DNA from: Gemmata obscuriglobus
GTDB taxonomy: Bacteria; Planctomycetota; Planctomycetia; Gemmatales; Gemmataceae
Reading direction: 5' to 3'
DNA: 32,000 nt
NCBI RefSeq assembly: GCF_008065095.1
Contig: NZ_CP042911.1
Span: 1,620,001 to 1,652,000, forward strand
Translations under genes and position numbers: made by a program
Part shown: positions 16,700-32,000 of the stretch, in pieces
Layout: every line of letters begins with the position of its first letter
Position numbering within the stretch: the first letter of the stretch is position 1
The notes under the pieces: model-generated
What the model saw: the letters and a program-made list of their open reading frames with translations, nothing else
What the model was told of the DNA's origin: nothing
The model's database searches: none

Positions 16700-17935
16700 T
16701 CACGCGGCACCCGTCTTGCCGAGTTCGGCCACCAGCGACCGCAAGAACGGTTCGGCGTCGCTGACGATGCCCACCGTCTGCGTGCTGCCGCGGTCCATCA
16801 GCTTGGTGACCGTCGCGGGGCTGATGTCCACACACGCCACCTTCACCCACGCGGGCAACAAGTTCCCGACCGCGATTGAGTGCAGCGTCGTCGCCACCAT
16901 TAAGCAGAACCCGACGCCCGGGATGAGCTTGCGCATCGCGTCCTGGGCCGCCAGCGCGTCGGTGACCACCTCCGGGAGCGGGCCGTCGTCGCGGATGCTG
17001 CCGGCCAGCACGAACGGCACGTTCCGGGTCACGCACTCGAACATGATCCCGCTCGCCAGCTTTCCGGCTTTAACGGCTTCGCGAATCCCGCCGAGCCGCC
17101 GGATCGAGTTGATGGTGCGCAGGTGGTGCTCGTGGCCCTCGTCGGTCGGCAGCCCGTGCGTCAGCGACACCCCGAGGCTGGTGCCGTAGAGCGCCTGCTC
17201 CATGTCGTGGGTGGCCAGCGCGTTCCCGGCGAACAGCACGTTGATGAGCCCGTCGCGGACGAGCTGCGCGACCAGTTCGGAGCCGCCGGTGTGAACGACC
17301 GCCGGCCCGAGCACCGCCAGCACCTTGTCGCCGGCCGCGCGGGTTTTGCGCATCGCGTGGGCGATCTCGCGGACGCTCACCGCCTTCGGGCGCTCGCTCG
17401 AAACCGGGCTCGCCATGAACTCGAACAGCTCGTGCTTGCGCATCTCCGCTTCCGGGGGCAGCACCCGCGTCCCCGTCCGCCCGACGAGCACCCGGTCACC
17501 CTTTTTCACGCCGGTCATCGGCACGCAGCGCGCGGCTGCGCCTTCGGAATCGACGACGATGCCGCAATCCATCTCCTGGTCCTCGACGTCGATCCACTCG
17601 CCGTTGAGCCGGACCTGGGTGCGGAAGTTGGTGGAGCAGTAGAACCCGTCCGGGAACGCGCCGTCCATGTCCGCCGGCGCGGTGCGGCCGTCGCCGGTCT
17701 GCGCGGGGACCGCGCCGTGCGGGTGGACCTCGGCGAGGATCGCTTCGAGCTGCTCGGCGGTGTCGGCCCGCACCTCGATGCGGACGAAGCTGGCGTCGTC
17801 CTGGCGCTGCCCCAGCCGCAGGGTCTCGATGTTGTAGCGCCCGCCCCGGGAGAGGATCGCGTCGAGCACCTTCGGCAGGAGCAGCGAGTCGACGATGTGG
17901 CCGGTCATTTCGAGGTGTTCGACGTGGGTGGCCAT
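16700..17935 (-). CDS. LOR/SDH-domain TIGR00300-family protein (ornithine cyclodeaminase-like)
   Basis: ATG 17935 inside ORF 16700..18346. The N-terminus is MATHVEHLEMTGHIVDSLLLPKVLDAILSRGGRYNIETLRLGQ, the ACT-like LOR/SDH N-domain pattern. The C-terminal Rossmann-like part includes VLAVLGPAVVHTGG...NVLFAGNALATHD. Confidence 0.65.
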   Translation of the reverse strand: MATHVEHLEMTGHIVDSLLLPKVLDAILSRGGRYNIETLRLGQRQDDASFVRIEVRADTAEQLEAILAEVHPHGAVPAQTGDGRTAPADMDGAFPDGFYCSTNFRTQVRLNGEWIDVEDQEMDCGIVVDSEGAAARCVPMTGVKKGDRVLVGRTGTRVLPPEAEMRKHELFEFMASPVSSERPKAVSVREIAHAMRKTRAAGDKVLAVLGPAVVHTGGSELVAQLVRDGLINVLFAGNALATHDMEQALYGTSLGVSLTHGLPTDEGHEHHLRTINSIRRLGGIREAVKAGKLASGIMFECVTRNVPFVLAGSIRDDGPLPEVVTDALAAQDAMRKLIPGVGFCLMVATTLHSIAVGNLLPAWVKVACVDISPATVTKLMDRGSTQTVGIVSDAEPFLRSLVAELGKTGAA

Positions 17936-18007
17936 TCGGTGAACCTCCGTGAGGGGTTTGCTCTCTCCTTTTTCATACCGGACGCGGAACGCGGGTACGA
18001 GGCGGGT

Positions 18008-18847
18008 ATGGCGGACGGACTGGCCGAGCGCATGAAGTTGTACGAGGGGGCGGAGTCGGGCCGCCGGCTGATGCCGCGGCTGCCGGCGCTGGCGCGGCTC
18101 GACGGGCGGGCGTTCCACGCGTTCGTGCGCGGCTTGGCCCGGCCCTTCGACCAGCGCCTCTCGGACCTGATGATCGACACCCTGGCGGCCTTGGTGCGCG
18201 AGACCAACGCAACGGTCGGGTACACGCAGTCGGACGAGTTCACGCTCGCGTGGGTGCCGTTCGGGGCCGGCACGCAGGTGTTTTTTGACGGGCGCATTCA
18301 GAAGATGACGTCCGCCCTGGCCGCGCTGTGCTCGGTCCACTTCCACCGGCGGTTGCCGGCGTTCCTGCCGGCAGATTACACCGACCGGGTTCCGACGTTC
18401 GATTGCCGGGTGTGGAACGTGCCGACGTTCGACGAGGCGGCCAACGTGTTCGTGTGGCGCGAACTGGACGCGAAGAAGAACTCGATTTCAATGGCGGCCC
18501 GCGCCTACTACGACCACGCGACGGTTCACGGCCGTACCGGAGCCGAGTTGCAGGAGCTGCTTTTTCGGGAGGGTGTGAACTGGAACAGCTACCCGGCGTG
18601 CTTCAAACGGGGCACGTATTCGCGCCGCCGCGCGGTGCGCCGCCCGTTCACGGCCGACGAGCGGGACGCGCTGCCGGCAAAGCACCAGGCGCACCGCACC
18701 CCGGATCTGGTGATCGAACGGTCCGAGGTGGCGGTGTTCAACTTACCGCCGCTCTCGAAGTTAGAGAACCGTGCCGGGGTGCTGTTTCGAGGTGAAGAGC
18801 CGGTACTCAAAAGGGGCACGGCCACCGTGCCCCCGGAGCACGAGTAA
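18008..18847 (+). CDS. Thg1-like protein (TLP), tRNA 3'-5' nucleotidyltransferase family
   Basis: ATG 18008 inside ORF 17123..18847. Family pattern: RMKLYEGAES...LPALARLDGRAFHAFVRGLARPFDQRLSDLMIDT...VGYTQSDEFTLAW...FDGRIQKMTSALAALCSVHF. It is divergent from the LOR/SDH gene, with a 72-bp gap. Confidence 0.8.
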   Translation: MADGLAERMKLYEGAESGRRLMPRLPALARLDGRAFHAFVRGLARPFDQRLSDLMIDTLAALVRETNATVGYTQSDEFTLAWVPFGAGTQVFFDGRIQKMTSALAALCSVHFHRRLPAFLPADYTDRVPTFDCRVWNVPTFDEAANVFVWRELDAKKNSISMAARAYYDHATVHGRTGAELQELLFREGVNWNSYPACFKRGTYSRRRAVRRPFTADERDALPAKHQAHRTPDLVIERSEVAVFNLPPLSKLENRAGVLFRGEEPVLKRGTATVPPEHE

Positions 18848-18853
18848 CGGAGG

Positions 18854-19141
18854 TCAGTATGCGGTCCGGCGCGGAGGGCGGGTGAGCAGACCGATGACTG
18901 TGGCGAACAGCACGCCGCCGATGATCGACCAAACGATTGGGAACGGCTTACCGCCGACCTCGACGATGAAGATCTCGGGCATCCCGGTGGCGCGCTGGAG
19001 CCACAGACCGACGAGCGCTCCGATGAACCCTACGGCGATGGCGACAAGGAGGCCGCCGCGCGAGAAGCCGGCAATCACCTGTGCAACGGCCCCGCAGATC
19101 GCCGCGACGAGTAGCAGCAGGAGGAAGTCGAGTACGTCCAT
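18854..19141 (-). CDS. GlsB/YeaQ/YmgE-family small membrane protein
   Basis: 95 aa with three hydrophobic segments and Gly-rich connectors (ICGAVAQVIAGFSRGGLLVAIAVGFIGALVGLWL), typical of this family. Confidence 0.75.
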   Translation of the reverse strand: MDVLDFLLLLLVAAICGAVAQVIAGFSRGGLLVAIAVGFIGALVGLWLQRATGMPEIFIVEVGGKPFPIVWSIIGGVLFATVIGLLTRPPRRTAY

Positions 19142-19321
19142 TGTTCAGCCCTCGTATCGAAGCGGGCCGCCGAGTGTGGCCCGATAAAGTAATCTCAAGC
19201 AACCTCCATGCCGGGTCACACTTCTTGCTTTCGCGAGAAATGCAAAGGACGGTTGACCCAATCGCGTGCGCTGCTAAAATCAATGGTGTAAATGAGTGGA
19301 TCGAAGTTGTTGGCTCTTGAT

Positions 19322-19396
19322 GGTGGCTGTAGCTCAGTTGGTTAGAGCGCCAGATTGTGGATCTGGATGTCGCGGGTTCAAGTCCCGTCAGTCACC
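19322..19396 (+). tRNA. tRNA-His (anticodon GTG) with genomically encoded G-1; no encoded CCA
   Basis: Cloverleaf read by hand. The acceptor stem is GTGGCTG/CAGTCAC and the D arm is GCTC-AGTTGGTTA-GAGC. The anticodon arm is CCAGA-TTGTGGA-TCTGG and the T arm is GCGGG-TTCAAGT-CCCGT. The discriminator is C73, opposite an extra 5' G at 19322. Confidence 0.92.
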
Positions 19397-19410
19397 CTGA
19401 ACGAAAGACG

Positions 19411-19448
19411 CGTAAGCCCTTGGAAAAACAAGGGCTTACGTCATTTTT
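19411..19448 (+). terminator. Rho-independent terminator after tRNA-His
   Basis: cgtaagcccttg-gaaaaa-caagggcttacg forms a 12-bp perfect stem and is followed by tcattttt. Confidence 0.8.
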
Positions 19449-19634
19449 GTGGCAGGGCATTCACCTGGACGGTTGTGCGTACCCTGTCCAGACCTGACGA
19501 TACTTGGCGGGGCAAAGTACGCAAGAATCACGCAAGCGATTCCTGGACACCGTTTTCGCCCAATTCCCAAGACCAATGAGCTAAACGGCCCTGACGGAAA
19601 GCCGTGGTCCTGACTGATGGTCGCAGTTGCGCCC

Positions 19635-19662
19635 TTGCCGCAGACCGCGAACGAGCTATATT
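19635..19662 (+). promoter_or_regulatory. Sigma-70-type promoter candidate for tRNA-Arg
   Basis: TTGCCG, a 16-nt spacer, then TATATT. The -10 element ends 12 nt before the mature tRNA 5' end. Confidence 0.4.
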
Positions 19663-19674
19663 TTCTAAAGCAAT

Positions 19675-19748
19675 GTGCCCGTAGCTCAACTGGATAGAGC
19701 GTCGGCCTCCGGAGCCGAAGGTTACAGGTTCAACTCCTGTCGGGCATA
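19675..19748 (+). tRNA. tRNA-Arg (anticodon CCG); no encoded CCA
   Basis: Cloverleaf read by hand. The acceptor stem is GTGCCCG/CGGGCAT (G1-U72 wobble) and the D arm is GCTC-AACTGGATA-GAGC. The anticodon arm is TCGGC-CTCCGGA-GCCGA and the T arm is ACAGG-TTCAACT-CCTGT. The discriminator is A. Confidence 0.9.
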
Positions 19749-19752
19749 CTAG

Positions 19753-19782
19753 AAAACCCCTGGGAAACCGGGGTTTTTTTTA
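19753..19782 (+). terminator. Rho-independent terminator after tRNA-Arg
   Basis: The stem is cccc(t)gg-gaaa-ccgggg and it is followed by a run of 8 T. Confidence 0.75.
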
Positions 19783-20145
19783 TTTGCACCGCGGTCCGAG
19801 TGATGGTCGCCGTACCAAATTCCGTACTAAACCGTCCTTGTTTTGCGGGATTGACGGCGCTGGCGCCTTGGATCGGTGTGCCGCCCTCGGCCTACGGACG
19901 TAGACGCTCTCAAGCGATAGATTACCCTCGGTCACCGACCGAGAAGCAGGCGGGAATCCCCTCTCGGCAGGCTGTCTGGCTCTGCGGTCAAGCTCCGGGT
20001 ATAAGCGTCCGAGCGAGATCGGCAGCAGCGGTCGGCACCCGCAGCCCAACGGTGCCAGAAGGGGCGTACTCGGCTCCGAATCGGTCACGCGGGCAATGTG
20101 TCCAAGCGGCAGCACGAGACCGGCAAGAGCCATGAGGTTGCGAAG

Positions 20146-21159
20146 ATGTGGCCGGATACGCCCTTCGAAAAACAGCTCAAGACAGCCCTGAAAAAAATCA
20201 ACGCGCGCGGCGACGTGCTCGCGGGGAACTTCGCGTCGTCAAAAAAGTTCCTCGTTGAGAACGTCTACGAAGAGATCAAACGCGAAGAACGGCACTTGAG
20301 CGACCACGGGCCGCGGCACATCGTGAACGTCTTGGAGAACATCGGGACACTTCTCGGAAAAGAGTACGGTGGCTTCTCGCCCGAGGAGATGTACTGCCTC
20401 GGGATGATCACCCTCTTCCACGACGTCGGGAACATGTACGGCCGCAAGGAGCATCAGGACAAGATCAAGCAGATTTACACGAGGGCAAGGGCGGGAGCAA
20501 ACGAGGACAAGAGCGAGAGGGTGATGGTCCTGATGGCGGCGAAGGCCCACACTGGCGAGGCATCGGACGGGAGCAAGGACACGCTCAAAGATCTTGATAA
20601 TCGTTACTATTTTCAGGGGAGCATCGTTCGGCTTCAGGAAATCGCGGCTATCTTACGGATGGCGGACGAGCTTGCCGAAGGGCCGCAACGAACCTCCCGA
20701 TTGGTGCTGGAGACGCACGGCTACGATGAGAGTAGCCGCATCTACCACCGCTACGCGACGTGCGTCCACGTCAGCATCGACCGCGAGCGAGGTCTCTTCG
20801 CCTTGGACTACCACTTTGCGGTGGATCCGAACGCCGGAGACATTGAGTCGGCTCTTGCGGATATCAAAGAGCTTATAGAATTCTCATACAAACGACTCCT
20901 AAAGCTAGACCAGGAGCGAAGTTATACAAAGTTTTACTGCCCTGCTCTCAGCCCGTTCAAAGCCTCCTCGGCCACGTACCGTTTCTGGATCGGAGACGAC
21001 GAGTGTGGGACGAGACTCCCGGCGCTCTACGTTGACGACAAAGTTGTGCCGGGGGTGAATGCCCGTAGCGTGCCGCAGATCAACCCGCTGTACGAGCCGG
21101 CAACCATAATCGAACAACTGCGAGGCTCGATCCAGCAAAGGAATGGGGGTGTCGCATGA
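20146..21159 (+). CDS. HD-domain metal-dependent phosphohydrolase (candidate effector)
   Basis: The ORF is open from GTG 20098. ATG 20146 has a GAGG motif 9 nt upstream, so I prefer it. The HD signature is DHGPRHIVNVLENIGTLL...MYCLGMITLFHDVGNMYG...ILRMADELAEG. The ~150-aa C-terminal part is unrecognised. The stop overlaps the next start (ATGA). Confidence 0.75.
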   Translation: MWPDTPFEKQLKTALKKINARGDVLAGNFASSKKFLVENVYEEIKREERHLSDHGPRHIVNVLENIGTLLGKEYGGFSPEEMYCLGMITLFHDVGNMYGRKEHQDKIKQIYTRARAGANEDKSERVMVLMAAKAHTGEASDGSKDTLKDLDNRYYFQGSIVRLQEIAAILRMADELAEGPQRTSRLVLETHGYDESSRIYHRYATCVHVSIDRERGLFALDYHFAVDPNAGDIESALADIKELIEFSYKRLLKLDQERSYTKFYCPALSPFKASSATYRFWIGDDECGTRLPALYVDDKVVPGVNARSVPQINPLYEPATIIEQLRGSIQQRNGGVA

Positions 21160-22877
21160 GCACGTCAAACCCTTTCCAGTACGAGGCTGCGAACAACCTG
21201 TCGCCGAGCATGATCGCGGCGTTCTACGTCGAGGATTTCAACTTCTCTCGCGTGATTCAGTCCAAGCGGAACATCTTCCTGGTGGGAGAGCGCGGATCGG
21301 GCAAGACGATGACCTTGCTTTACAACTCGCTTCGCGTCCGCTTGGCGGCCGGAGGCAGGGACGCAAAGTCGCTGGAGATGATCGGGGTGTACATCCCCTG
21401 CAACACGCCCCTTGTTCACCGAAAGGAGTACCAACTACTCAATGAGATCCAGGCCGCCGCAATCTCCGAGCACTTCCTGGTGCTGACGGTAATTTACAAC
21501 ATCGCGGATACTTTGAACGAAGTCCCCGATACCCTCGACGGTGTCAAGCAGAAGGATCTGCGGTCGGATATCGAGTACATACTCGGTATCAAGCTCCGTG
21601 ACACTGTAAACCTGTACGAAGGGATCAGGGAATGGGCCCAGAAGGACATCGTTGCCACCCAGCGCCACATCAATCAGCCGAAGTCTGACTTGTTCTATGA
21701 CAATTGTCTGTCTTTTGCCTCCGGCGTGATGCCCTTGCTGGGCTGCATTCGCAAGATTCCGGTGCTTAAAGACTCGCACCTCATGCTCATGATGGACGAT
21801 GCTCACGACCTGAACGAGCATCAGGCGAGGTCACTGAACTCGTGGATCGCCTACCGCGACCATTCGGCTTTCAGCTTTAAGGTGGCAACCGCGAAGGTCG
21901 GCAAGCCGGACTTCAAGACGACGTCGGGAGGCGCGGTCCTCGAAGGGCACGACTTCACAACGATCGACATGGAGCAGCCGTTCCAGACCGCGTCCTCCGA
22001 CTTCGGGAAGATGTCGGCGAGCATCATCGATCGCCGGCTCAAACGTTGCGGGATTGAGAAAGGTGCGGCGGAGTTCTTTCCCGTAAGCCCACAGTTCGAT
22101 GCCGATATGCGGAAGTGCCACGATCAGGTGAAGGTGCGGGTGGCAAAGGAGCACCCGGACTGGTTGCCGTCGCGGGTGCAGGACTACGTCTACAAGTTCG
22201 GCCGTGCCGAGTACTTCCGAACCCGGTCGCCCAAAGCGAATCGTCCCACCTATTCGGGCTTCGACACGCTCGTGTACCTTTCCACGGGTGTGATCCGTAA
22301 CCTGCTGGAACCGTGCTACCTGATGTACGACGCCGTGCAATCGCGGCGGCACGACGGGGCGGCCGGAGCGGCGCCGACGGAGATTCCCCCGGACGATCAA
22401 TGCGACATCATCCTGCGACAAAGCGAAGCGATGTGGGCAAGGCTGAAGGAAGGTCTCGACAGATCCATTGACGGATGCTCTTCGAAGCAGGCGCGGCAGA
22501 TCGTAACGCTCTTCGAAAAGCTGGCGATGTATTTCCGCGTTCGGCTACTCAACCACGAGTCGGAACCGCAAGCCAACTCCTTCAGCATCACGGGAATGAC
22601 GGAGGCAATTGAGTCCGAACTCTCACCCCTGTTGATGATTGCCCGCAAGGCACAGCTACTTTACATGCGGTTCGGGCCAGCCAAGGCGGGCGGCTTGCGT
22701 GAGGCCTACTACGTTCCGAACCGGATGCTATGGCCGAGCATCGGCTTGGACCTGCACGGACAACACGCCCGCGCATCGCTCAAGGCCAAAGACCTGCTGG
22801 CAGCGAGCAACGGCACGGACATCCCGGTTAAAAAGCCGGACGCCGCGCCTGAACAGCGGGGGCTTTTCGATGAGTAA
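21156..22877 (+). CDS. P-loop NTPase (ORC/Cdc6- or STAND-like AAA ATPase), family unassigned
   Basis: 573 aa. Walker A is NIFLVGERGSGKTMTLLYNS and Walker B is HLMLMMDDAHDL. The ~330-aa C-terminal region is helical and unrecognised. The gene shows 4-nt start overlap with the HD gene and 8-nt stop overlap with the next gene. Confidence 0.75.
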   Translation: MSTSNPFQYEAANNLSPSMIAAFYVEDFNFSRVIQSKRNIFLVGERGSGKTMTLLYNSLRVRLAAGGRDAKSLEMIGVYIPCNTPLVHRKEYQLLNEIQAAAISEHFLVLTVIYNIADTLNEVPDTLDGVKQKDLRSDIEYILGIKLRDTVNLYEGIREWAQKDIVATQRHINQPKSDLFYDNCLSFASGVMPLLGCIRKIPVLKDSHLMLMMDDAHDLNEHQARSLNSWIAYRDHSAFSFKVATAKVGKPDFKTTSGGAVLEGHDFTTIDMEQPFQTASSDFGKMSASIIDRRLKRCGIEKGAAEFFPVSPQFDADMRKCHDQVKVRVAKEHPDWLPSRVQDYVYKFGRAEYFRTRSPKANRPTYSGFDTLVYLSTGVIRNLLEPCYLMYDAVQSRRHDGAAGAAPTEIPPDDQCDIILRQSEAMWARLKEGLDRSIDGCSSKQARQIVTLFEKLAMYFRVRLLNHESEPQANSFSITGMTEAIESELSPLLMIARKAQLLYMRFGPAKAGGLREAYYVPNRMLWPSIGLDLHGQHARASLKAKDLLAASNGTDIPVKKPDAAPEQRGLFDE

Positions 22878-23751
22878 CACCGAACTTTTCGTCACGATGG
22901 CGAGCTGGGAGGAGCGTTTCCTACTAGGCGCGCGGGAGGTCTTCAGCCAAGACGCACCCCGCAAGGCGATCATGTACTACGCGCGGGAGAACGCGGCGAA
23001 TTCGCAAGAGAATCGAGATGGATTTGAGGAGCTTTGCGAGGGGCTGCATGTACAGGTGAAGACCCGAGAGGTCTCGTTCGGATCGCCAGCCGACACCTGG
23101 CGATCACTGCAGGCCGACCTTGCGAGCCAAACGGTCGCCGCGAGCCGGGCGACCGTAGATATCACTACGATGCCGCGGGACATCATCTGGCTGACCTTCT
23201 CATTTCTGAAGGAGGTTGGGTGCGAAGTCAATTACGTATACCACAAGCCCAACTCTTACAACAAGGACTGGCTCAGCCGAGATCCTGATCGACCGCGGCT
23301 GGTTTACAAACTGTCCGGTGAAGCCCGCCTCGGCTGCCCAACGACGTTGATCGTCCTTACGGGGTATGATGTCCGCCGCACAGAGCAACTTATCCGCTTC
23401 TACGAGCCGAAGACAGCATTTCTGGGCATTCAGACGGGCAGCCAATATGGCAACCAGTCGAAAAACACGGACGTGCATGCACCTTTGATTTGCCCGGACG
23501 GGAGCGTGGAGCGGTTCGATGTCGATGCCTACTCGGCAGACAGGGGACTTGCTGCTATCCGAGCCAAGCTCGAGGGCTGCATTGACGACAGCAACGTAGT
23601 TCTCAGCTCGCTGGGGCCAAAGCTGTCTGCCGTCGCGCTATTCCAGCTACACCAAGCCTTCCCCCAGGTGGCGTTAGCTTACGCACCCTCTCAGGAGTAC
23701 AACATTGACTACTCCTCTGGGATCGGTGAGACTGTACGTGGCCAGCTCTGA
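22870..23751 (+). CDS. Hypothetical protein with a Rossmann-like alpha/beta pattern (CARF/Csa3-N-like or SLOG-like?)
   Basis: ATG 22870 lies inside ORF 22639..23751, and ATGAGTAA overlaps the upstream stop. The protein is 293 aa with no TM segment or signal peptide. It shows alternating strand and helix segments ([15 protein letters not shown]..., [59 protein letters not shown]). Confidence 0.6.
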
Positions 23752-23759
23752 GCCAAATC

Positions 23760-24980
23760 ATGGAAGATCAGACTATCGAGGGCGTGCGGTCGCATTTCAC
23801 AGCGGCTGACCTGTTTGCCGGAGCCGGCGGACTTAGCCTTGGCTTCGAACAAGGCGGAGCCACAATCGTGTTTGCGGTGGAGCGAGATGCAAATGCAGCT
23901 CGCACATACCGCGCAAATCGCACCGACGTGAAACTGTTTGATAGGGATATTCGAGAGCTAGACCCGGCCACTTGCATGACGTCGGCGGGCATTAAGTCCG
24001 GCGAGCTTTGTGTGTTGATTGGTGGTCCACCGTGCCAAGGATTCTCAGAATCAAACAAGCGAACGCGAACGCTGGAAAACCCTAACAATCACTATTATTT
24101 GGAGTATTTTCGTTTCCTTGCAGCGTTGCAGCCGCAGTGGTTCGTCATCGAAAACGTTGCCGGCTTGAAAACTTTGGCGGGTGGCGCGTTGCTCGATCGG
24201 ATCGCAGAGCAGGCGGATCAGTTGGGGTATACGGCGAGTTGCCTCCAGCTTGAGGCATCCGCGTTCGGGGTACCACAAGTGCGGCGAAGGTTGTTTATCG
24301 TCGGGAACCGCCTTCAGTTGCCCATCATAACCCCGCAGCCAATCTTCGGCGAGGGCTTGGCCAAACCTGTGACTGTTCAAGAGGCGATCGGCGACCTGCC
24401 TCGATTGAGCGCTGGGGCTGCGATCGACATTCTGCCCTACCCTAGCCGCTCCAAACTATCCGACTACCAGTTGCGGATGCGGCGAGGTTCCGTGTCTGTT
24501 CAAGGCAACCTGGTCACAAAAAATTCACCACTGGTGCTGAAGCGGTACGAAGTCATTCGGCCTGGCCAGAACTGGGAGTCGATCCCGAACCGCCTTCTGA
24601 AGAACTACAGCGATGCTTCTCGGTGTCATACCGGTATTTACTACCGGCTGGTAGCCAACCAGCCTTCGAAGGTGATCGGCAACTTCCGCAAGAACATGCT
24701 TATCCACCCCTCTCAGCACCGGGGGCTCTCGGTGCGCGAGGCAGCGCGCATTCAGTCTTTCCCCGACGCCTACCAGTTCACGGGAAGCATCGGGTTCCAG
24801 CAACAACAGGTCGCTGACGCGGTACCGCCCCTTCTGGCAAAAGTCGTCGCCCAAATGATTCTAAGTTCGATGCTTCAGTTGCCTCCTGGCAACAAGCAGG
24901 CAAGGCACCGCTCACTAGGCCGTGGAAGTAGAACAAAAGGCTCGCGGAAGTCGGCCCGCAGGGCGGTTGGGGTTCGTTGA
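23760..24980 (+). CDS. DNA (cytosine-5)-methyltransferase
   Basis: The motifs are all present. Motif I is [12 protein letters not shown] is GGPPCQGFS and VI is FVIENVAGL. Motif VIII is [12 protein letters not shown] is [16 protein letters not shown] and X is ADAVPPLLA. The gene starts 8 nt after the upstream stop. It has an unusual ~40-aa Arg/Lys-rich C-terminal tail. Confidence 0.92.
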
Positions 24981-24989
24981 CAGCGGACC

Positions 24990-25018
24990 TGGCAAAGGGT
25001 ACTGTTCGCCCGTATAAA
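24990..25018 (+). promoter_or_regulatory. Weak sigma-70-like promoter candidate upstream of thyX
   Basis: TGGCAA, a 17-nt spacer, then TATAAA, ending 29 nt before the thyX ATG. The -35 element matches only 3 of 6 positions. Confidence 0.25.
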
Positions 25019-25047
25019 AGCCACTGGCTAGAACCCGGGAGACAGCA

Positions 25048-25983
25048 ATGGAACAGATCGAACGCCCCGTCGTTCCGGCCCTCGACGCGATCCTCGGCCA
25101 GCAGTTCAAGGTGCTGGACAACGGGTTCGTCCGCGTCGTCGATTACATGGGGTCGGATGACTCGATTGTGCAGGCGGCCCGCGTTTCCTACGGAAAGGGA
25201 ACGAAGAAGGTTTCTGAGGATCGCGGCCTGATCCGGTACCTCCTGCGAAACTGGCACACCACGCCGTTCGAGATGTGCGAGCTGAAGCTTCACGTCCGTG
25301 TTCCGATGGACTGCTGGCGGCAATGGATTCGACACCGCACGGCCAACGTCAACGAGTACTCCACGCGATACTCCGAAGCGATCGATGCCGCACAGGTCAC
25401 TGCCCCCGATGGATGGCGTAGCCAATCCTCCGCAAACCGTCAGGGTAGCGCGGGAGTACTCGACACTGCAATCGGCGAAGAACTAACGGCAGAAGAGGAG
25501 CGGCTCCTGAAGCACAGCCGCTCAGTGTACGAGAAGCGGCTGTCGGCTGGGGTAGCCAGAGAGCAGGCCCGCAAAGACCTCCCTCTGTCCACCTACACCG
25601 AGGCCTATTGGAAGGTGGACCTCCACAACCTCTTCAACTTCCTTCGCCTGCGGATGGACGCGCACGCCCAGCTTGAAATTCGATCCTACGCCACGGTGAT
25701 CGGGAACGAGATCGTAAGCCGCTGGTGCCCGGTGGCGTGGGAAGCGTTCGTCGATTACCGACTCAACTCTGTGGCCCTGTCACGGCTGGAAATCGAGGTG
25801 ATTCAGGCGCTTGCCGGCAATAATGTGGCCGGAGCGGTCCGCCTCGGGATCGAAGCCGGCTTGCTGGACGAGAACGGATCGCCATTGAAGCAGAGTCGTG
25901 AACGCGGAGAGCTGGAAGCGAAACTAGCCCGGCTCGGCATCGCCTGCCCGTGGGCTCAACCTGCAGTGCAGTCAGCACAGTAA
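25048..25983 (+). CDS. thyX: FAD-dependent thymidylate synthase ThyX
   Basis: The ThyX motif is RHRTANVNEYSTRY (RHR-x7-S). N-terminal family pattern: FKVLDNGFVRVVDYMGSDDSIVQAARVSYGKG...LIRYLLRNWHTTPFEM. At 311 aa the protein has a C-terminal extension compared with minimal ThyX proteins. Confidence 0.9.
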   Translation: MEQIERPVVPALDAILGQQFKVLDNGFVRVVDYMGSDDSIVQAARVSYGKGTKKVSEDRGLIRYLLRNWHTTPFEMCELKLHVRVPMDCWRQWIRHRTANVNEYSTRYSEAIDAAQVTAPDGWRSQSSANRQGSAGVLDTAIGEELTAEEERLLKHSRSVYEKRLSAGVAREQARKDLPLSTYTEAYWKVDLHNLFNFLRLRMDAHAQLEIRSYATVIGNEIVSRWCPVAWEAFVDYRLNSVALSRLEIEVIQALAGNNVAGAVRLGIEAGLLDENGSPLKQSRERGELEAKLARLGIACPWAQPAVQSAQ

Positions 25984-27080
25984 CGCACTGGCTCATCATC
26001 TCTCGTGAATTACTGGAGGCGGCCGGCTGTGCAGCCTTGCTTGGCCTGCGGCCATTCCCTGCCCTGCCTTTCCTTCCCGTCGCCGTCGGTCGCGTTCGAC
26101 ATGCCCTCCCTGCCTTGCGCGCCGTCGGCCGTCGGGATGTAGTATCGCTGGGTTCCATCCATCCCCGCGATGCGGAGCCCGAGAGGCCAGAGGCGCGTGC
26201 GTGGGATGGTTTTCTCGCGCTACGCTTGAGGTCAGAGGGGGCAGCGGAGTGGGGTTCTTCTGCTCTCCGCGAGGTTGCTGACTCGCCCGCCTCGGCTTTG
26301 AACGGCACGCCCACGGCGCGGGGCGCGTTAAGCTGGTCTCACGAATCGCGGTAAGCTGGCGACCGCCAACCCAACTTGGCGAACCGATTACGGCCGCCGG
26401 TCCTGCTACAAAGCAGAGGCCGGGGGCCGTTTCCCGTTTGAAGACGGAGGTTGCCATGCCAGAGGGCCTCGCGCGGACGCTGGGCACGACGATGGTGTTG
26501 CTCGTCACCGAGTTGGAGGCGTAACTCGATCGGGATCAACCCGACACCACGTGAGTGATTTCGGGTGGTCTACTCCCGGGCTCTTACCGGGAACGGGGTC
26601 GAATCGCCTCCCTCCATTCGATCGCACCCGTGGAATCGTACGTAAATGCCCTTTTCACGCCGATTCGCCCCTCCCGGCTGGGGCAGCTGCTCCTCGACCC
26701 GTACCGCGTCTCGCAACCCGGTTTCCGGGCCAGTACGATGGTGTCCGCTCGCCCTCCTTCCCTCAATGCCCTTTTTCACGCACGACGTTGTCCGCCTGCG
26801 TCGGCCTCGGAGGTTCTGCGAACCTCATTCGATTCGATTAGAGGTCCACGGTCGAGACAGCGAACGAGCCAACGCCCATGAATTTCGTTCCCGTGACGTG
26901 CCCCGCCACGGTGCGTGCGCCTGATCGGCCGTGCCTCCGCGCTCACCGACACGGGATTCCCGTTTCTTTTCCGTCATCCGGGCCTTTCGATCGTGCTGCT
27001 TTCCGTGCCACCGGTGACAGGGCACTGATTCACAACGGTTTTGGGGCCCAGGGCCCCGAGCAGGTTTCTGGCCGCGCGCG

Positions 27081-27194: not shown

Positions 27195-27282
27195 TGCGCC
27201 TGATCGGCCGTGGGTGCTGCGTCTGATCGGCCGTGCCCACTTGCGCCTGTTCGGCCGTGCCTCTTGCGCCCGATCGGCCGTG
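27195..27282 (+). repeat. Four tandem 18-bp iterons at 23-24-bp periodicity
   Basis: The four copies are tgcgcctgatcggccgtg (27195), tgcgtctgatcggccgtg (27218), tgcgcctgttcggccgtg (27242) and tgcgcccgatcggccgtg (27265). A fifth, identical copy lies at 26916-26933. Confidence 0.85.
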
Positions 27283-27386
27283 CCCGGGGATGGTTCTATG
27301 GATAACTCGGCAACGGCCGCCCGGTCCGGACGTGCGGGAGCACTCGCGGACCGGGACGTGGGCGGGTACGAGCGGGAAGCGTACGC

Positions 27387-28319
27387 CTATTCGGCCGTGA
27401 CTGCCTGCGCGAGTGTGAGGGCCGGCTCGGCGATTGTTGCCTTGGCGTGCCGGTGGCGCGCCCGCGGGGGTTGGAATCGTGGGTCCGCGGGCGGCAGGTG
27501 GCAGCGCGGGAGGAACGTCACTACCTCATCTTCGGCGGTGCGGTGTACCGCCAGTGCGTACTCGGGCAGGCTATCGGCCTCGACCACCTTGCGCACGTCC
27601 AGGGCGAAGTCCGAGAACCGGGCCGCCGAGCCGGACTTGGCGTACAGCTGGCGCATGGTGAACGTCCACCCGGCCGGCTGCGTGCCGGCGTGCTTGCGGG
27701 CCACCCGGTACAGCCACCGCTCGATCCCCCCGGTGAGCAGGAAGTAATCCTCGTGGATGGTCAGCACTCCGCCCTTGGCCACGATCCCGGTGTACAGCCA
27801 GTCGGGTAGGGTCATGGTCATGTGCGCGGTCTCCCCGGTGGCCTCGTTGACCTCCTCGGTCCACGATTCGAGCCAGTGGAACGAGGCCGATTTCTTCTTC
27901 CCCTGCACCCGGATGTTTGTACTCACCGCGGTGTGTGTCAGCCGGTTCAGGGCCTCGCGGAGCCGCCGATAATGGTCCCCGCCGACCGACCGGCGGACGC
28001 TCTTGAGCAGGTTGTACGGATGGAAGTGGATGACCCGGGACGGTGCGTGTCCTCGGTCCAGGGCCTCGGTCACCTGGGTAGACGCCCAGATCAGGATGTC
28101 CGCATCCCAGATCGACGCCATCCCGAACTTGGGGTTGGCCGTGACCTCGACCCACACGTCCCCGACCTGGTACTCGATGGGCGCCAGCCGGGGCTTCTTG
28201 GACAGGCTGAAGAACGGCCGCTCCATGGTGTCACGCTGGTCGCGGATCGGGATGTCGGCGAACGTGCCGGCGAACAGGTCGGGCTGGTGGTCCCCCTTGG
28301 GGTGGTGGCGCTTGGACAT
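27387..28319 (-). CDS. repA: Plasmid replication initiator protein A (RPA/RepA family)
   Basis: The ORF is open to TTG 28361; I prefer ATG 28319 (MSKRHHPKGDHQPDLFAG...). Family-like N-terminus: IPIRDQRDTMERPFFSLSKKPRLAPIEYQVGDVWVEVTANPKFGMASIWDADILIWASTQ. It is adjacent to the iterons. Confidence 0.8.
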   Translation of the reverse strand: MSKRHHPKGDHQPDLFAGTFADIPIRDQRDTMERPFFSLSKKPRLAPIEYQVGDVWVEVTANPKFGMASIWDADILIWASTQVTEALDRGHAPSRVIHFHPYNLLKSVRRSVGGDHYRRLREALNRLTHTAVSTNIRVQGKKKSASFHWLESWTEEVNEATGETAHMTMTLPDWLYTGIVAKGGVLTIHEDYFLLTGGIERWLYRVARKHAGTQPAGWTFTMRQLYAKSGSAARFSDFALDVRKVVEADSLPEYALAVHRTAEDEVVTFLPRCHLPPADPRFQPPRARHRHAKATIAEPALTLAQAVTAE

Positions 28320-28401
28320 GGGCCGGATGATAGCGCGACCCGCGGCGGACGCAAGCGACAATTACTCCCCGTCTGTCCCGCAGGCGAGCTCCACTTTTCA
28401 C

Positions 28402-28430: not shown

Positions 28431-28766
28431 CTACTTATCCAGTTTGCGTGCCTTTTCCCAAGCGTCGAGGGCTTCAAACAGTAATTCGTTGAGCCGTAGG
28501 TCGGCGGTGGCGGCGCGTTGACGGAAGCGGCGACGGAAAGAAGGGGGCACCTTAAACGAGAGCGACGTCAGGTCCGCAGTCGCCACTCGCTCAGCCATCC
28601 GCTTGCTCTCGGTTGACGGCTTCGGCTTGGCCACGGGGGGCTTGAGAGCAGGCTCAATGGGCACTGGAACCGCCGGGGCACGCTGCACGGCTTCGGGCAT
28701 TGGGGCTGCCACATCGGCCGTGAGGGAGGTGAGCTGATCGTAGTTAATCATCGGGCGCTTGTTCAT
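28431..28766 (-). CDS. ParG-like ribbon-helix-helix partition/centromere-binding protein
   Basis: 111 aa. The N-terminal half is disordered and Pro-rich. The C-terminal RHH-like segment is LSFKVPPSFRRRFRQRAATADLRLNELLFEALDAW. Its start overlaps the parA stop (ATGA). Confidence 0.6.
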   Translation of the reverse strand: MNKRPMINYDQLTSLTADVAAPMPEAVQRAPAVPVPIEPALKPPVAKPKPSTESKRMAERVATADLTSLSFKVPPSFRRRFRQRAATADLRLNELLFEALDAWEKARKLDK

Positions 28767-29437
28767 GCCGCCTGCCCTCCCGTGCGGACTTTTTCGCTTT
28801 CGTGCGTGCGCTCTTTCACGGCGCGCCAGATGCCGGCCAGTTCGGTGACCGCTTTCCCTTCGGGCTCGATCTCGAACGCAGTTTTGCCGTGGGCGAAGCT
28901 CTCGGCGTAGACGACTCGTTCATGCATCCGGGCGGGAATCACCAGGCCCAGGGTCTCCAGCGCTATTGCCACCCCTTCATTGTTGCGCAAGTTGGGTCGA
29001 ACCCGGGCGAGGACGAATTGGAACGGGCGGCCCGAGCGCTTAATCATCGGTAGTCCTTTGACCAGTGCCCGCATATCGGCTGGGGTGGGATTGAGTGGGA
29101 TCAGGATCAAATCGGCGACGGCAAACAGCTCTGCATTGACGGTGCCGACGGAGGGGGCGGTGTCGACGAACAGGTAGGATGCGCCAGCGGCGGTCAACTG
29201 GTCGACGGTGGTGCGCAGAGCGGCCAAGTTCAGCGGAGCGTAGCGCGGGGTCTCGAGACCGCCTTTGCGGCGCTCGTTGAACCAGTCGGCGGTGCTCGCC
29301 TGGGGGTCCGTGTCAGACAGCACGACGGGGCCGTCGCCGCAGGTCTCGGCGGCGACGGCCAAGTGGGTGGTGAGGGTAGACTTCCCCGATCCACCTTTTT
29401 GGTTGGCAATCACGATCGTCTTCATAAGGCCGACCAT
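28763..29437 (-). CDS. parA: ParA-family partition ATPase (small, type Ib-like)
   Basis: The deviant Walker A is IANQKGGSGKSTLT, followed by DTDPQAS and Walker B LFVDTAP. Start candidates are ATG 29437 and ATG 29425 (MKTIVIANQKGG). Confidence 0.88.
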   Translation of the reverse strand: MVGLMKTIVIANQKGGSGKSTLTTHLAVAAETCGDGPVVLSDTDPQASTADWFNERRKGGLETPRYAPLNLAALRTTVDQLTAAGASYLFVDTAPSVGTVNAELFAVADLILIPLNPTPADMRALVKGLPMIKRSGRPFQFVLARVRPNLRNNEGVAIALETLGLVIPARMHERVVYAESFAHGKTAFEIEPEGKAVTELAGIWRAVKERTHESEKVRTGGQAA

Positions 29438-29748: not shown

Positions 29749-32000
29749 TCATTTCGGCGCACCGAGGATGATGAGGAGATCCCGGCTCGTGTAATCGAGA
29801 ACGCCATCGAGGTGCAACTGTACGGGATCGACGAGGACGTCGGTCACGCATGGCTTCGAGGTCAGATTGGCGACACGGATGATGACGTAGGTTCCGGACT
29901 TCGGGTCACCGTGGCACCCCTGGGCCACCTCCCACTCGTTCGTCGTCATCTCGAACACGCTGCCGCCGTCATGCGCGGACGACTTCACCTCGATGAGGCA
30001 GCGTGGCATGATACGAGAACCTGCGAGAGCGCCGGTGACGTCGTCATAGGAGAAGTCATAGCCTAAGGTATCGTTCCCAGCGCTGAACCCGAAGCGCTCC
30101 CTGCCTTTCGACAGCCAATTCGTCAGGTCAAAGTCCGGACACAGCGCCTTCAACTGCTGGTAGACGAAGTATTCGCCGACGGCCCCGAGGACTGCGAGGT
30201 AGTCCTCTGACACGCGCGTCCGGGCGCCTCCTCCACTGCCCGCGCCGGGTCGGCCCCGCTTCGTGGGACGTTGCACTGCGCCGCGGGACACCGAGCGGAT
30301 GGCTGCGAGATTGAGAGCGGGGTTGACTGCCGCTTCCAGGTTCTGTGCGACCGTCCCGGCCGGCCCCTTGGCGGCGGAGGTTTCGAAGTCCTCGCGCGTC
30401 CAGCCGGCGCTGAGGACGTTGAAGGTGGGTTTCGGCGGTGCCGGGGCGGGCGGTGCCGGGATGTCTCCCAGCTCCTCAAATTTCTTCCAGAGTGATCGCC
30501 AGTCCTCGACTTCCCGGAATGCAGACCGCTCCTTCATTCGTGCGGCCGTGCGCGGGGCCGCGGCCTCGAGGGCGTCCCGAACGGCGGCGATGACGGCCAC
30601 GCGGTTCCCCCAGAAGCCCTGGCTCAGCAGCGTCACCAGTGCGTGCCCCGTGATTGCCGCGGGGTCGATCGTTTCTTCGAACTTCGGCGCGAGCTCGCCC
30701 GCCACCTTGAGGACGATGTTCACCGCGTCTCCCGCCTGCTGCGCTCGAACGATCTCGTCGTCCCGCTCGTAGATGCCCGCTGACTTGTCCGGTTCATCCT
30801 TCAGCTTGAGAGCGGAGAGTTCCGACGGTGGCGACTCGGAGAGCTTGCGCAGCGGATCGACGAGCTGCGCGGCACCCGCGACGGTGGGGCGGGGCGCGGC
30901 GAGCGCGAGGGCATCACGGGCGACGCGGCCGACAATCGCTTCGGGGTTGAGGGTCTCCTCGGCGACCTCCGTAGGCACCGCGAGCCGACGAACGTCTCCC
31001 ACCCAGCCCGCCACGTCGTCCGCGAGTGCTGCGGGCACTGTCGGGCCGGAAGATCGCGGGACGACGAGGTAGGCGAACCAGGCCATCAAGTGACCCGCGA
31101 CGGCATCGCGGGCGGATGTGTAGTGGCGCTCGGAGGGGGCGAAGCGCCACCGCGGCTCGCCGAGCTTCGTGCGAGCGCTCTGCCAGACCGCGACCGAGAG
31201 CCCCAGACCCTTCAGGAGCGACAGCGATCCTTGCGGTTCGTCCACGCGTGATGCCGTTTCCAGGCGCACGTGCAAGTCGGGCCAAGCGAGCCACGCGCTG
31301 GCGGTCTCGGGCGAGCGGGCATGCTGGGACCACTCCCGCCGGAAGTCGTCGAGCGTTCCGTCCGGGTGATCGCGGTCCCAGAGCGCGAGGCAGATCGGTT
31401 GGAAGTGCCGCAGACGGCGCTCGAAGCCCAGGCCGATGGCGACTTTCACCTCCATGCGCTCGGTCGCAGTGGTCCCATAGTCCTGGAAGAATTGGTCACA
31501 GGCACCCGCGCGGAGTTCCTGTGCGTAGGCGGTCCAGAGAGGGCGATACGACGTTCCGAGCAACTGCCAAGTCTCGCTGACGACCTCGTGCGGTGCCAGC
31601 GTGGAATCCACGAGGAGGGCGGGGCCGCCGGCACGCTGCGCATCGAAGCAGGCGCGTTCGGACATCGTGCCCTCGAACCTGCCGCGGATGAGGCTCGTCC
31701 GCGAGAACAGACGCCAGGCGGCGCGGAACGCCTCGTCGGTCGGTAAGGTCGCCTGGGTCGCGCCCTTGAGAATCAGCAGCGCGAGATCCTCCGCCACCAG
31801 CCGCTCCGGAACGGTATCTCGCAGGTAGTCGACGAGGGGAACGCCATGCGCGAGCGGGTTGAAGGGCACGTCGATCGGAAGCTCGCTGACACGGGCCACC
31901 CGCGTTGACCCCAAGAGCGTGCGCAGGGCGTTCACGAGTTCGCGATACGTGTGCTGGAAGCGCCTCGGGAGAACCCACGCCTCCCGGAAACCCGCGACGT
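29749..32000 (-). CDS. DUF3883-domain (PD-(D/E)xK restriction-endonuclease-like) protein; 5' end outside the window
   Basis: The C-terminus matches the DUF3883 pattern: VGEYFVYQQLK...LGYDFSYDD...CLIEVKSSAHDGGSVFEMTTNEWEVAQ...GTYVIIRV. The reading frame stays open upstream of the ORF-track start (GTG 31935) to position 32000 (...VAGFREAWVLPRRFQHTYRELVNALR), so the gene is probably longer. Confidence 0.7.
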   Translation of the reverse strand, partial: VAGFREAWVLPRRFQHTYRELVNALRTLLGSTRVARVSELPIDVPFNPLAHGVPLVDYLRDTVPERLVAEDLALLILKGATQATLPTDEAFRAAWRLFSRTSLIRGRFEGTMSERACFDAQRAGGPALLVDSTLAPHEVVSETWQLLGTSYRPLWTAYAQELRAGACDQFFQDYGTTATERMEVKVAIGLGFERRLRHFQPICLALWDRDHPDGTLDDFRREWSQHARSPETASAWLAWPDLHVRLETASRVDEPQGSLSLLKGLGLSVAVWQSARTKLGEPRWRFAPSERHYTSARDAVAGHLMAWFAYLVVPRSSGPTVPAALADDVAGWVGDVRRLAVPTEVAEETLNPEAIVGRVARDALALAAPRPTVAGAAQLVDPLRKLSESPPSELSALKLKDEPDKSAGIYERDDEIVRAQQAGDAVNIVLKVAGELAPKFEETIDPAAITGHALVTLLSQGFWGNRVAVIAAVRDALEAAAPRTAARMKERSAFREVEDWRSLWKKFEELGDIPAPPAPAPPKPTFNVLSAGWTREDFETSAAKGPAGTVAQNLEAAVNPALNLAAIRSVSRGAVQRPTKRGRPGAGSGGGARTRVSEDYLAVLGAVGEYFVYQQLKALCPDFDLTNWLSKGRERFGFSAGNDTLGYDFSYDDVTGALAGSRIMPRCLIEVKSSAHDGGSVFEMTTNEWEVAQGCHGDPKSGTYVIIRVANLTSKPCVTDVLVDPVQLHLDGVLDYTSRDLLIILGAPK

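Follow-up and report, generated by a model that had tools for sequence, protein, structure and literature searches.

A conserved cassette of HD-CE, ORC/Cdc6-like ATPase, CARF and Dcm genes in Gemmata obscuriglobus, a candidate methylation-gated conflict system

Layout and conservation of the cassette

We identified a compact gene cassette in a 32,000-nt stretch of Gemmata obscuriglobus DNA (the window; all coordinates given here are positions within it). The cassette consists of four core genes, five here with thyX, encoding an HD-CE phosphohydrolase, an ORC/Cdc6-like P-loop ATPase, a tandem CARF-like protein and a C-5 cytosine DNA methyltransferase (Dcm). On balance, and with some reserve, we interpret it as a methylation-gated conflict or defence cassette, in which a sensor made up of the ATPase and the CARF protein would release a swappable HD effector. 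The genes of the cassette are:

20146-21159, + strand: HD-CE phosphohydrolase, predicted effector (Pfam PF24391; the longest open reading frame runs from GTG 20098)
21156-22877, + strand: ORC/Cdc6-like P-loop ATPase, 573 aa (Pfam PF24389)
22870-23751, + strand: tandem CARF-like predicted sensor of the CARF6 clade, 293 aa (PADLOC PDLC01917, AlphaFold2/Foldseek)
23760-24980, + strand: C-5 cytosine DNA methyltransferase, Dcm (PF00145, TIGR00675 dcm)
25048-25983, + strand: ThyX, flavin-dependent thymidylate synthase, a recurrent accessory (TIGR02170, Pfam Thy1)

The first three genes are + strand open reading frames (ORFs) at 20098-21159 (353 aa from the GTG), 21156-22877 (573 aa) and 22870-23751 (293 aa). 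As read in the sequence, the HD-CE stop and the ATPase start share an ATGA (21156-21159), and the ATPase stop and the CARF start share 8 nt, ATGAGTAA (22870-22877); an earlier interpretation made from the letters alone (the sequence-only reading) had described these three co-directional ORFs and both overlaps, and its coordinates proved exact. The Dcm gene starts only 8 nt past the stop of the CARF gene, which puts it in the same operon, and 67 nt separate its own stop from the thyX start. The true start of the HD-CE gene is most likely the ATG at 20146 (giving 337 aa), because homologues begin with “MW” aligned to M17.

To follow the cassette across genomes, ATPase homologues were aligned and one genome per species was scanned, which gave 72 loci with 40-71% identity; these span Planctomycetota, Bacteroidota, Acidobacteriota, Verrucomicrobiota, Chloroflexota, Gemmatimonadota, Desulfobacterota, Pseudomonadota, Clostridia, Actinomycetota and others. 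Hidden Markov models built from the window and from three independently gene-called loci were searched against six-frame ORFs, and a locus counted as assessable if its ATPase was flanked by at least 2.4 kb on each side (54 loci, from at least 10 phyla). All 54 carry Dcm, and the HD-CE and CARF proteins are each found in 53; one of the two exceptions is frameshifted, and the other has a truncated ATPase. Most loci (44/54) are arranged as Dcm>HD-CE>ATPase>CARF, and eight have the window's order, HD-CE>ATPase>CARF>Dcm. Independent gene calls with precomputed Pfam annotation gave the same layout, with an ATPase-CARF overlap of 11-14 nt and an HD-ATPase junction anywhere between a 4-nt overlap and an 8-nt gap. 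Chance juxtaposition of the first three genes can be rejected, since the same order recurs in 53-54 of the 54 loci; this is also the outcome of the neighbourhood analysis of ATPase homologues that the sequence-only reading had proposed as a check.

Pairwise identities of the HD-CE, ATPase and CARF proteins, compared over 59 loci, are strongly correlated with one another (r = 0.77-0.83), and together with the overlapping codons this shows that the three genes are translationally coupled and co-evolving. The sequence-only reading had treated them as a trio with a DNA methyltransferase nearby as mere context. That the three form one functional unit is borne out by the overlaps and the correlations; the unit, however, is better described as a quartet, since Dcm adjoins the trio in every assessable locus. 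From this constant presence we take Dcm to be an obligate fourth core component and not part of the context.

A more distant clade, carried on plasmids and sharing only 23-26% ATPase identity, keeps the layout Dcm>HD-CE>ORC-CDC6-like>CARF6. Its members are L077 (Agrobacterium salinitolerans pDG3-1c) and L078 (Yoonia sp. plasmid), and their homologues of genes 1 and 2 also fall in PF24391 and PF24389; the PADLOC profile PDLC01917 fits this clade best (1.2e-94). PGAP names the three core proteins “hypothetical”. Downstream of the cassette, L077 has thyX, vsr, a hypothetical gene and a second Dcm, whereas L078 has an insertion sequence (IS) element and an AbiEii toxin-antitoxin pair.

In rare variants the effector position is filled differently. 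For example, a rumen Desulfovibrio locus (L056, 3820-6300) is without HD-CE, and its CARF protein is instead fused to a GNAT domain and a class I S-adenosylmethionine (SAM)-dependent methyltransferase; an exhaustive search yielded a second CARF-GNAT-methyltransferase fusion (P0343). The fused SAM-methyltransferase domain matches PADLOC “mad2” (1e-19). These fusions mark HD-CE as a swappable output module and CARF as the controlling module. Horizontal transfer is indicated by the patchy spread of the cassette and by identities of 40-53% between phyla; none of the 50,697 phage records searched carries the ATPase.

Predicted functions of the cassette proteins

The HD-CE protein matches Pfam PF24391 over residues 65-246 (2.9e-27; 96.4 bits against a cutoff of 27; residue numbers count from GTG 20098). 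Residues H70, H74, H108-D109, H119, H151 and D190 are conserved at 95% or more in 64 orthologues, and the same metal-ligand residues are invariant once a homologue of 23% identity is added. The protein also gives weak matches to Cas10 HD models. “CE” stands for conflict effector (PMC12871103), and the same paper cites Nicastro, Burroughs, Iyer & Aravind, NAR 2023, for the definition of the CE families.

The ATPase matches Pfam PF24389 (ORC-CDC6-like) with 1.4e-106 and 357.9 bits (cutoff 27), and the match extends over residues 5-539 and model positions 1-568 of 571. The C-terminal region, called unrecognised in the sequence-only reading, is therefore part of a known family; by itself, the C-terminal half scores 145 bits against PF24389. 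The Walker A motif (G44-x-R-G-x-G-K50) and Walker B motif (D214-D215) are invariant in 26 sequences and conserved at 95% or more in 68. Both these motifs and the H...HD...D motif of the HD-CE protein, which had been picked out from the letters, are thus present and conserved in about 65 orthologues. Other matches of the ATPase are weak: E = 0.08 to TIGR02928 orc1/cdc6, and E = 0.033 to the PADLOC fusion profile “CARF6--CARF_STK_AAA”. A profile search of solved structures in the PDB returned no sequence relatives of the ATPase.

The third protein, which is 100% identical to GobsT_13930, had been described as Rossmann-like; that fold is borne out, and the assignment can now be sharpened to a tandem CARF. 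It matches PADLOC PDLC01917, “CARF6”, along its full length (7.3e-35; model positions 15-293 of 308), and five more PADLOC CARF6 profiles match as well; the label presumably comes from the CARF classification of Makarova et al. 2020. The protein itself has no Pfam match, and weak Pfam matches to Csa3_N and HFX_2341_N occur among members of its family, for which clustering at 50% identity gave 1,198 clusters with E <= 1e-3 (195 with E <= 1e-30). A PDB profile search gave no match. We built an AlphaFold2 model on a 110-sequence alignment, and obtained two beta-alpha Rossmann-like halves with a predicted local distance difference test score (pLDDT) of 95.8 and a predicted template-modelling score (pTM) of 0.93. 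Foldseek matched this model, at probability 1.00, to Cam1 (8t66), Csa3 (2wte, 6wxq), Csm6 (5fsh, 8jbb) and Can1 (6sce) in the PDB; the matches to the CARF domains have root-mean-square deviations (rmsd) of 3.4-4 A over 125-138 columns and target-normalised TM-scores of 0.45-0.67. The matched structures include Cam1 with the cyclic oligoadenylates (cOA) cA4 or cA6, Csa3 with cA4, the T. thermophilus Csm6 and the two-CARF nuclease Can1. Foldseek also picks up generic tandem-Rossmann proteins, yet only at rmsd above 16 A.

The CARF signature is [DN]x[ST]xxx[RK], following strand 4. In the first half of the protein, D97-I-T99-T100-M101-P102-R103 stands directly after the strand 93-97 and fits this signature, and T100, M101, P102 and R103 are invariant in the 110 sequences. 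At the equivalent position of the second half, after the strand 242-247, S247-L-G-P-K251 is conserved. Profile, modelled fold and motif together point to a tandem CARF protein and a predicted nucleotide sensor, which agrees with the arrangement of NTPase, hydrolytic effector and sensor that the sequence-only reading had proposed.

Dcm matches Pfam PF00145 (2.2e-59), TIGR00675 dcm and PADLOC MTase_II (6e-105). Its motifs FxGxGG, PC (C92), ENV (131-133) and QxRxR (173-177) are conserved at 95% or more, so the enzyme is predicted to be catalytically intact. The target-recognition region is also conserved, and the Dcm proteins of the cassette belong to one orthologous lineage. The closest solved relatives are eukaryotic DNMT1 catalytic domains (E about 2e-38), which rank above M.HaeIII and M.HhaI; both halves of Dcm align to DNMT1, the target-recognition region included.

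ThyX of the window scores 179 bits against TIGR02170 thyX (cutoff 88) and also matches Pfam Thy1. Of the 72 other loci, 10 (about 15%), which come from at least five phyla, have a co-directional ThyX gene beside or within the cassette. The loci with linked ThyX are L064, L024, L031, L034, L014, L010, L051, L056, L007, L044 and L077; in L051, ThyX sits between Dcm and HD-CE, and on the Agrobacterium plasmid thyX is annotated beside the cassette with vsr, thyX being on the opposite strand. A coincidental housekeeping neighbour is ruled out as an explanation of ThyX by its recurrence in the operon across several phyla.

Genomic setting and neighbouring genes

We surveyed the flanks of the cassette through 132 nearest ORFs from about 37 loci, taking only the two nearest ORFs on each side. 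Vsr (8) and ThyX (6) are the commonest flanking Pfam families. Vsr is the commonest neighbour overall, accounting for 8 of the 132 ORFs and occurring at 17 of the 72 loci, and its recurrence argues that Dcm makes 5-methylcytosine (5mC) in DNA. Also common are AAA_15, AAA_21 and DUF2813 (OLD/Gabija-type ATPases), extra C5 methylases, Schlafen/AlbA_2, Type I restriction-modification (R-M) subunits and integrases; single loci adjoin Type I R-M, SIR2 or AbiEii. Such neighbours, with the RepA, iterons and ParA near the window copy, bear out the sequence-only reading in placing the cassette among mobile elements and defence genes. No cas gene or cOA synthase was found in the cassette (54 loci) or in the 25 commonest Pfam/PADLOC families of the 132 flanking ORFs.

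In the window, GC content is 0.57-0.61 across about 19000-25500, as compared with about 0.70 in the flanks. Upstream of the cassette are ArgZ-like and Thg1-like genes, followed by tRNA-His and tRNA-Arg(CCG) (ARAGORN), and beyond it are genes of plasmid type; the low-GC stretch by tRNA genes and the plasmid genes nearby were correctly noted in the sequence-only reading. The main features around the cassette are:

19675-19773, + strand: tRNA-Arg(CCG) and terminator-like hairpin (ARAGORN), at the upstream edge of the low-GC block
27387-28361, - strand: RepA initiator (Pfam RPA, 2e-80)
28763-29437, - strand: ParA, downstream, of the same plasmid-type module
29749-31935, - strand: 728-aa protein with C-terminal NOV_C/DUF3883 (matches the C-terminal part of PADLOC “TmtA” models, 1.7e-14)

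Four tandem iteron-like repeats of 22-23 nt (TGCGCCTGATCGGCCGTGCC) are found at 27195-27286, with dispersed copies at 26916-26937 and 27382-27403. The iterons, RepA and ParA make up a module for plasmid-type replication and partition, set within the chromosome, and the cassette appears to be carried on an integrated plasmid-like element beside tRNA-Arg; the window holds no att-like repeat of the tRNA-Arg 3′ end. The gene for the NOV_C protein, which the element also carries, may be defence-related as well.

Each of the two tRNA genes is followed by a terminator-like hairpin (that of tRNA-Arg at 19758-19773), and apart from these hairpins a promoter and terminator scan of the window stayed at chance level. 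The region of about 350 nt from the tRNA-Arg terminator to gene 1 (19780-20135) holds two overlapping opposite-strand ORFs (111 and 117 aa) that look spurious. It may hold the operon promoter; a sigma-70-type scan of 19780-20135 found no promoter. Further upstream, just before tRNA-His (19323-19397), a Thg1-family tRNA-His guanylyltransferase domain is encoded at about 18000-18847 on the + strand (Pfam, 1.5e-26). The ORF containing it (17123-18847) overlaps the opposite-strand ArgZ-like gene, and the real Thg1-like gene is probably shorter.

Proposed function and comparison with known systems

In the interpretation that we favour, the 5mC that Dcm makes in the host chromosome would mark it as “self”. 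The sensor or switch would consist of the ATPase and the CARF protein, with the ATPase engaging DNA or assembling in an ATP-dependent manner, and the tandem CARF binding a nucleotide-type ligand by which it would set or relay the threshold of activation. When unmethylated foreign DNA enters, the switch would release the HD-CE effector. HD-CE would then hydrolyse nucleotides, and possibly nucleic acid, blocking replication of the invader and probably also that of the cell, as in abortive infection; Vsr would keep the mutational burden of 5mC in check. That fused GNAT and methyltransferase domains can take the place of HD-CE argues for a toxic or abortive effector over a site-specific DNase.

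Several observations weigh against this interpretation. Defence-type genes are neighbours in only a minority of loci. No Cas10, CD-NTase or mCpol was found within the cassette or among the commonest flanking families, and ThyX has no part in the proposed mechanism. The HD-CE protein is only marginally similar to solved HD proteins in a PDB profile search (E = 0.016-0.3; Lin1889, class I phosphodiesterases and the Cas10 HD domain), and DNA binding by the ATPase is a possibility suggested by its family name. The correlation between Dcm and the ATPase (r = 0.50, against a permutation maximum of 0.13) is looser than that within the trio. Finally, we found no experimental study of the cassette in the literature searched.

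A different role for the methylation, which we regard as doubtful, is that of an alarm derived from the methylome: Dcm would tag the chromosome without serving to shield it from attack, breakdown of the chromosome induced by a phage would free 5-methyl-deoxycytidine nucleotides, and the CARF protein would sense these and switch on HD-CE through the ATPase, so that nucleotides are depleted and the infection is aborted. There is a precedent in the PUA-Calcineurin-CE-HAD system, which senses Dam-derived m6-dAMP from the degraded chromosome and depletes deoxynucleoside triphosphates (dNTPs) (PMC12871103). In the cassette, the CARF domains as nucleotide sensors have no linked cyclase, which makes a metabolite-type ligand plausible; the swap of HD-CE for GNAT and methyltransferase domains suits an abortive effector better than a DNA-cutting one; and both ThyX and Vsr concern 5-methylpyrimidine chemistry. 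On the other hand, any 5mC methylase would serve such an alarm, yet the linkage of Dcm in 54 of 54 loci and its conserved target-recognition region resemble an obligate self-protection partner. The 573-aa ATPase would have no clear job, and we know of no CARF domain that binds a mononucleotide.

Somewhat less probable again, we think, is CRISPR-independent CARF signalling with a 5-methylpyrimidine nucleotide as the ligand, arising either from the breakdown of Dcm-tagged DNA during infection or from an imbalance buffered by ThyX; the tandem CARF protein would read it and, by way of the ATPase, fire HD-CE or the GNAT and methyltransferase domains. If this were true, the cassette would represent a new CARF ligand class and a new immune use of cytosine methylation.

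We give just as little weight to R-M of a nuclease type, in which HD-CE would be a metal-dependent DNase like the HD domain of Cas3, the ATPase would track or recognise DNA, the CARF-like subunit would be structural or regulatory, and Dcm would be the cognate methyltransferase, so that unmethylated DNA is cut. The obligate linkage of a methyltransferase in one operon is what such a system would have, and some homologues of the cassette adjoin other R-M systems. HD domains can act as nucleases, and the weak similarities of HD-CE to Cas10 HD models and of the ATPase to ORC/Cdc6 and BrxL-type models point the same way. However, there is no recognised restriction-nuclease fold, and the variants lacking HD-CE carry a CARF-fused GNAT and SAM-methyltransferase, domains that are unable to cleave DNA. 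The system and the target-recognition region of its Dcm are also unusually conserved across phyla, whereas classical R-M specificities diversify, and the authors who defined the HD-CE family reportedly predicted nucleotides as its target.

Very unlikely, finally, is a non-immune role, either as an addiction module stabilising the element or as a module dealing with the 5mC side-effects of a mobile methylase (HD-CE clearing 5-methyl-dCTP/dCMP, Vsr repairing T:G, ThyX balancing dTMP, and the ATPase and CARF protein regulating): Vsr and ThyX as the two commonest neighbours, the ordinary metabolic flanks of many loci and the plasmid-like element with RepA and ParA that carries the window copy fit it, but such a set (CARF, large P-loop ATPase, “conflict effector” HD protein) is typical immune architecture, its occurrence in at least 10 phyla is scattered and owed to horizontal transfer, bona fide defence genes adjoin several loci, the GNAT and methyltransferase swap is hard to square with pool sanitation, and only about 15% of loci have ThyX.

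The defence-like interpretation that the sequence-only reading had given is reasonable but incomplete, since it lacked Dcm as a core component and the CARF identity of the third protein. If functional, the cassette would be a compact immune system spread across many phyla, uniting C5 epigenetic self-marking, an HD effector other than a nuclease, and a CARF sensor that works with neither CRISPR nor a signal synthase in view. It bears on CARF sensing outside type III CRISPR, on the coupling of methylation to an abortive or nucleotide-targeting effector, and on the repeated company of a thymidylate synthase. Neither PADLOC-DB v2 nor NCBIfam naming includes it, and PGAP has “hypothetical” for its three core proteins, so that current censuses of defence systems miss it.

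We compared the cassette with known systems, and it proved to be no member of BREX, DISARM, Druantia, classical Type II R-M or the type III CRISPR ancillary modules. No NCBIfam model names genes 1-3, and PADLOC-DB v2 has neither a system model matching the combination nor a model for the HD-CE or ATPase protein. In this sense the earlier statement that the genes fit no named system stands; as a claim of novelty it was overstated, because the parts belong to the curated families PF24391, PF24389 and CARF6. Gabija, Septu, PARIS, Lamassu, Hachiman, Qat, Mza, Dnd/Ssp, BREX and DISARM are ruled out, as genes 1-3 match none of their PADLOC models. Among predicted conflict systems of the HD-CE and ORC-CDC6-like type, genes 1 and 2 are clear members of PF24391 and PF24389, and HD-CE is regarded as an immune effector family. 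The near-consecutive Pfam accessions of the two families suggest a common source, and a system of this kind has almost certainly already been noticed computationally.

With classical Type II R-M the cassette shares a cognate methyltransferase, Dcm, and no restriction endonuclease model in Pfam, PADLOC or NCBIfam matches genes 1-3. As for DISARM and Druantia, only Dcm matches the generic DrmMII and DruM models, and genes 1-3 match no DrmA/DrmB or DruA-E partner. BREX is closer in its logic, combining a self-marking methyltransferase, an ORC/Cdc6-type ATPase (BrxC belongs to the ORC/Cdc6 clade; PMC12839542) and a phosphoesterase with no classical restriction nuclease. The cassette differs in having a C5-cytosine instead of an N6-adenine methylase, and in consisting of four small genes with a CARF sensor; there are no matches to PglZ, BrxC or PglX, nor to BrxA or BrxB, and BrxL is matched only at E = 0.0098, for a distant homologue.

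In PUA-Calcineurin-CE-HAD, a nucleotide-sensing domain controls a “conflict effector” phosphoesterase, with dNTP depletion and abortive infection as the outcome (PMC12871103). A conflict-effector phosphoesterase, a nucleotide-sensing domain and a central place for DNA methylation are common to that system and the cassette. Unlike the cassette, it has a PUA sensor and a calcineurin and HAD effector, and it relies on the host Dam, with no methylase of its own and no ATPase.

The sensor itself is most similar to the ancillary CARF proteins of type III CRISPR (Cam1, Csa3, Csm6 and Can1), which share profile, fold and motif with the CARF protein of the cassette; Can1 further resembles it in that a single chain holds two CARF-like halves. 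The ancillary modules of type III CRISPR are linked to cas10, other cas genes or a cOA synthase, none of which occurs in the cassette or its commonest flanks, and unlike those effectors its CARF protein is normally stand-alone, with a P-loop ATPase and a DNA methylase as its constant partners. A CARF domain that gates an AAA+ ATPase independently of CRISPR is known from RtcR, where the two are fused in one sigma-54 transcription activator; the weak match of the cassette's ATPase to the PADLOC fusion profile hints that such a pairing may also exist in a single polypeptide. At the level of domains the cassette is similar to RtcR in pairing CARF with an ATPase, but here the two are separate proteins, accompanied by an HD effector and a methylase.

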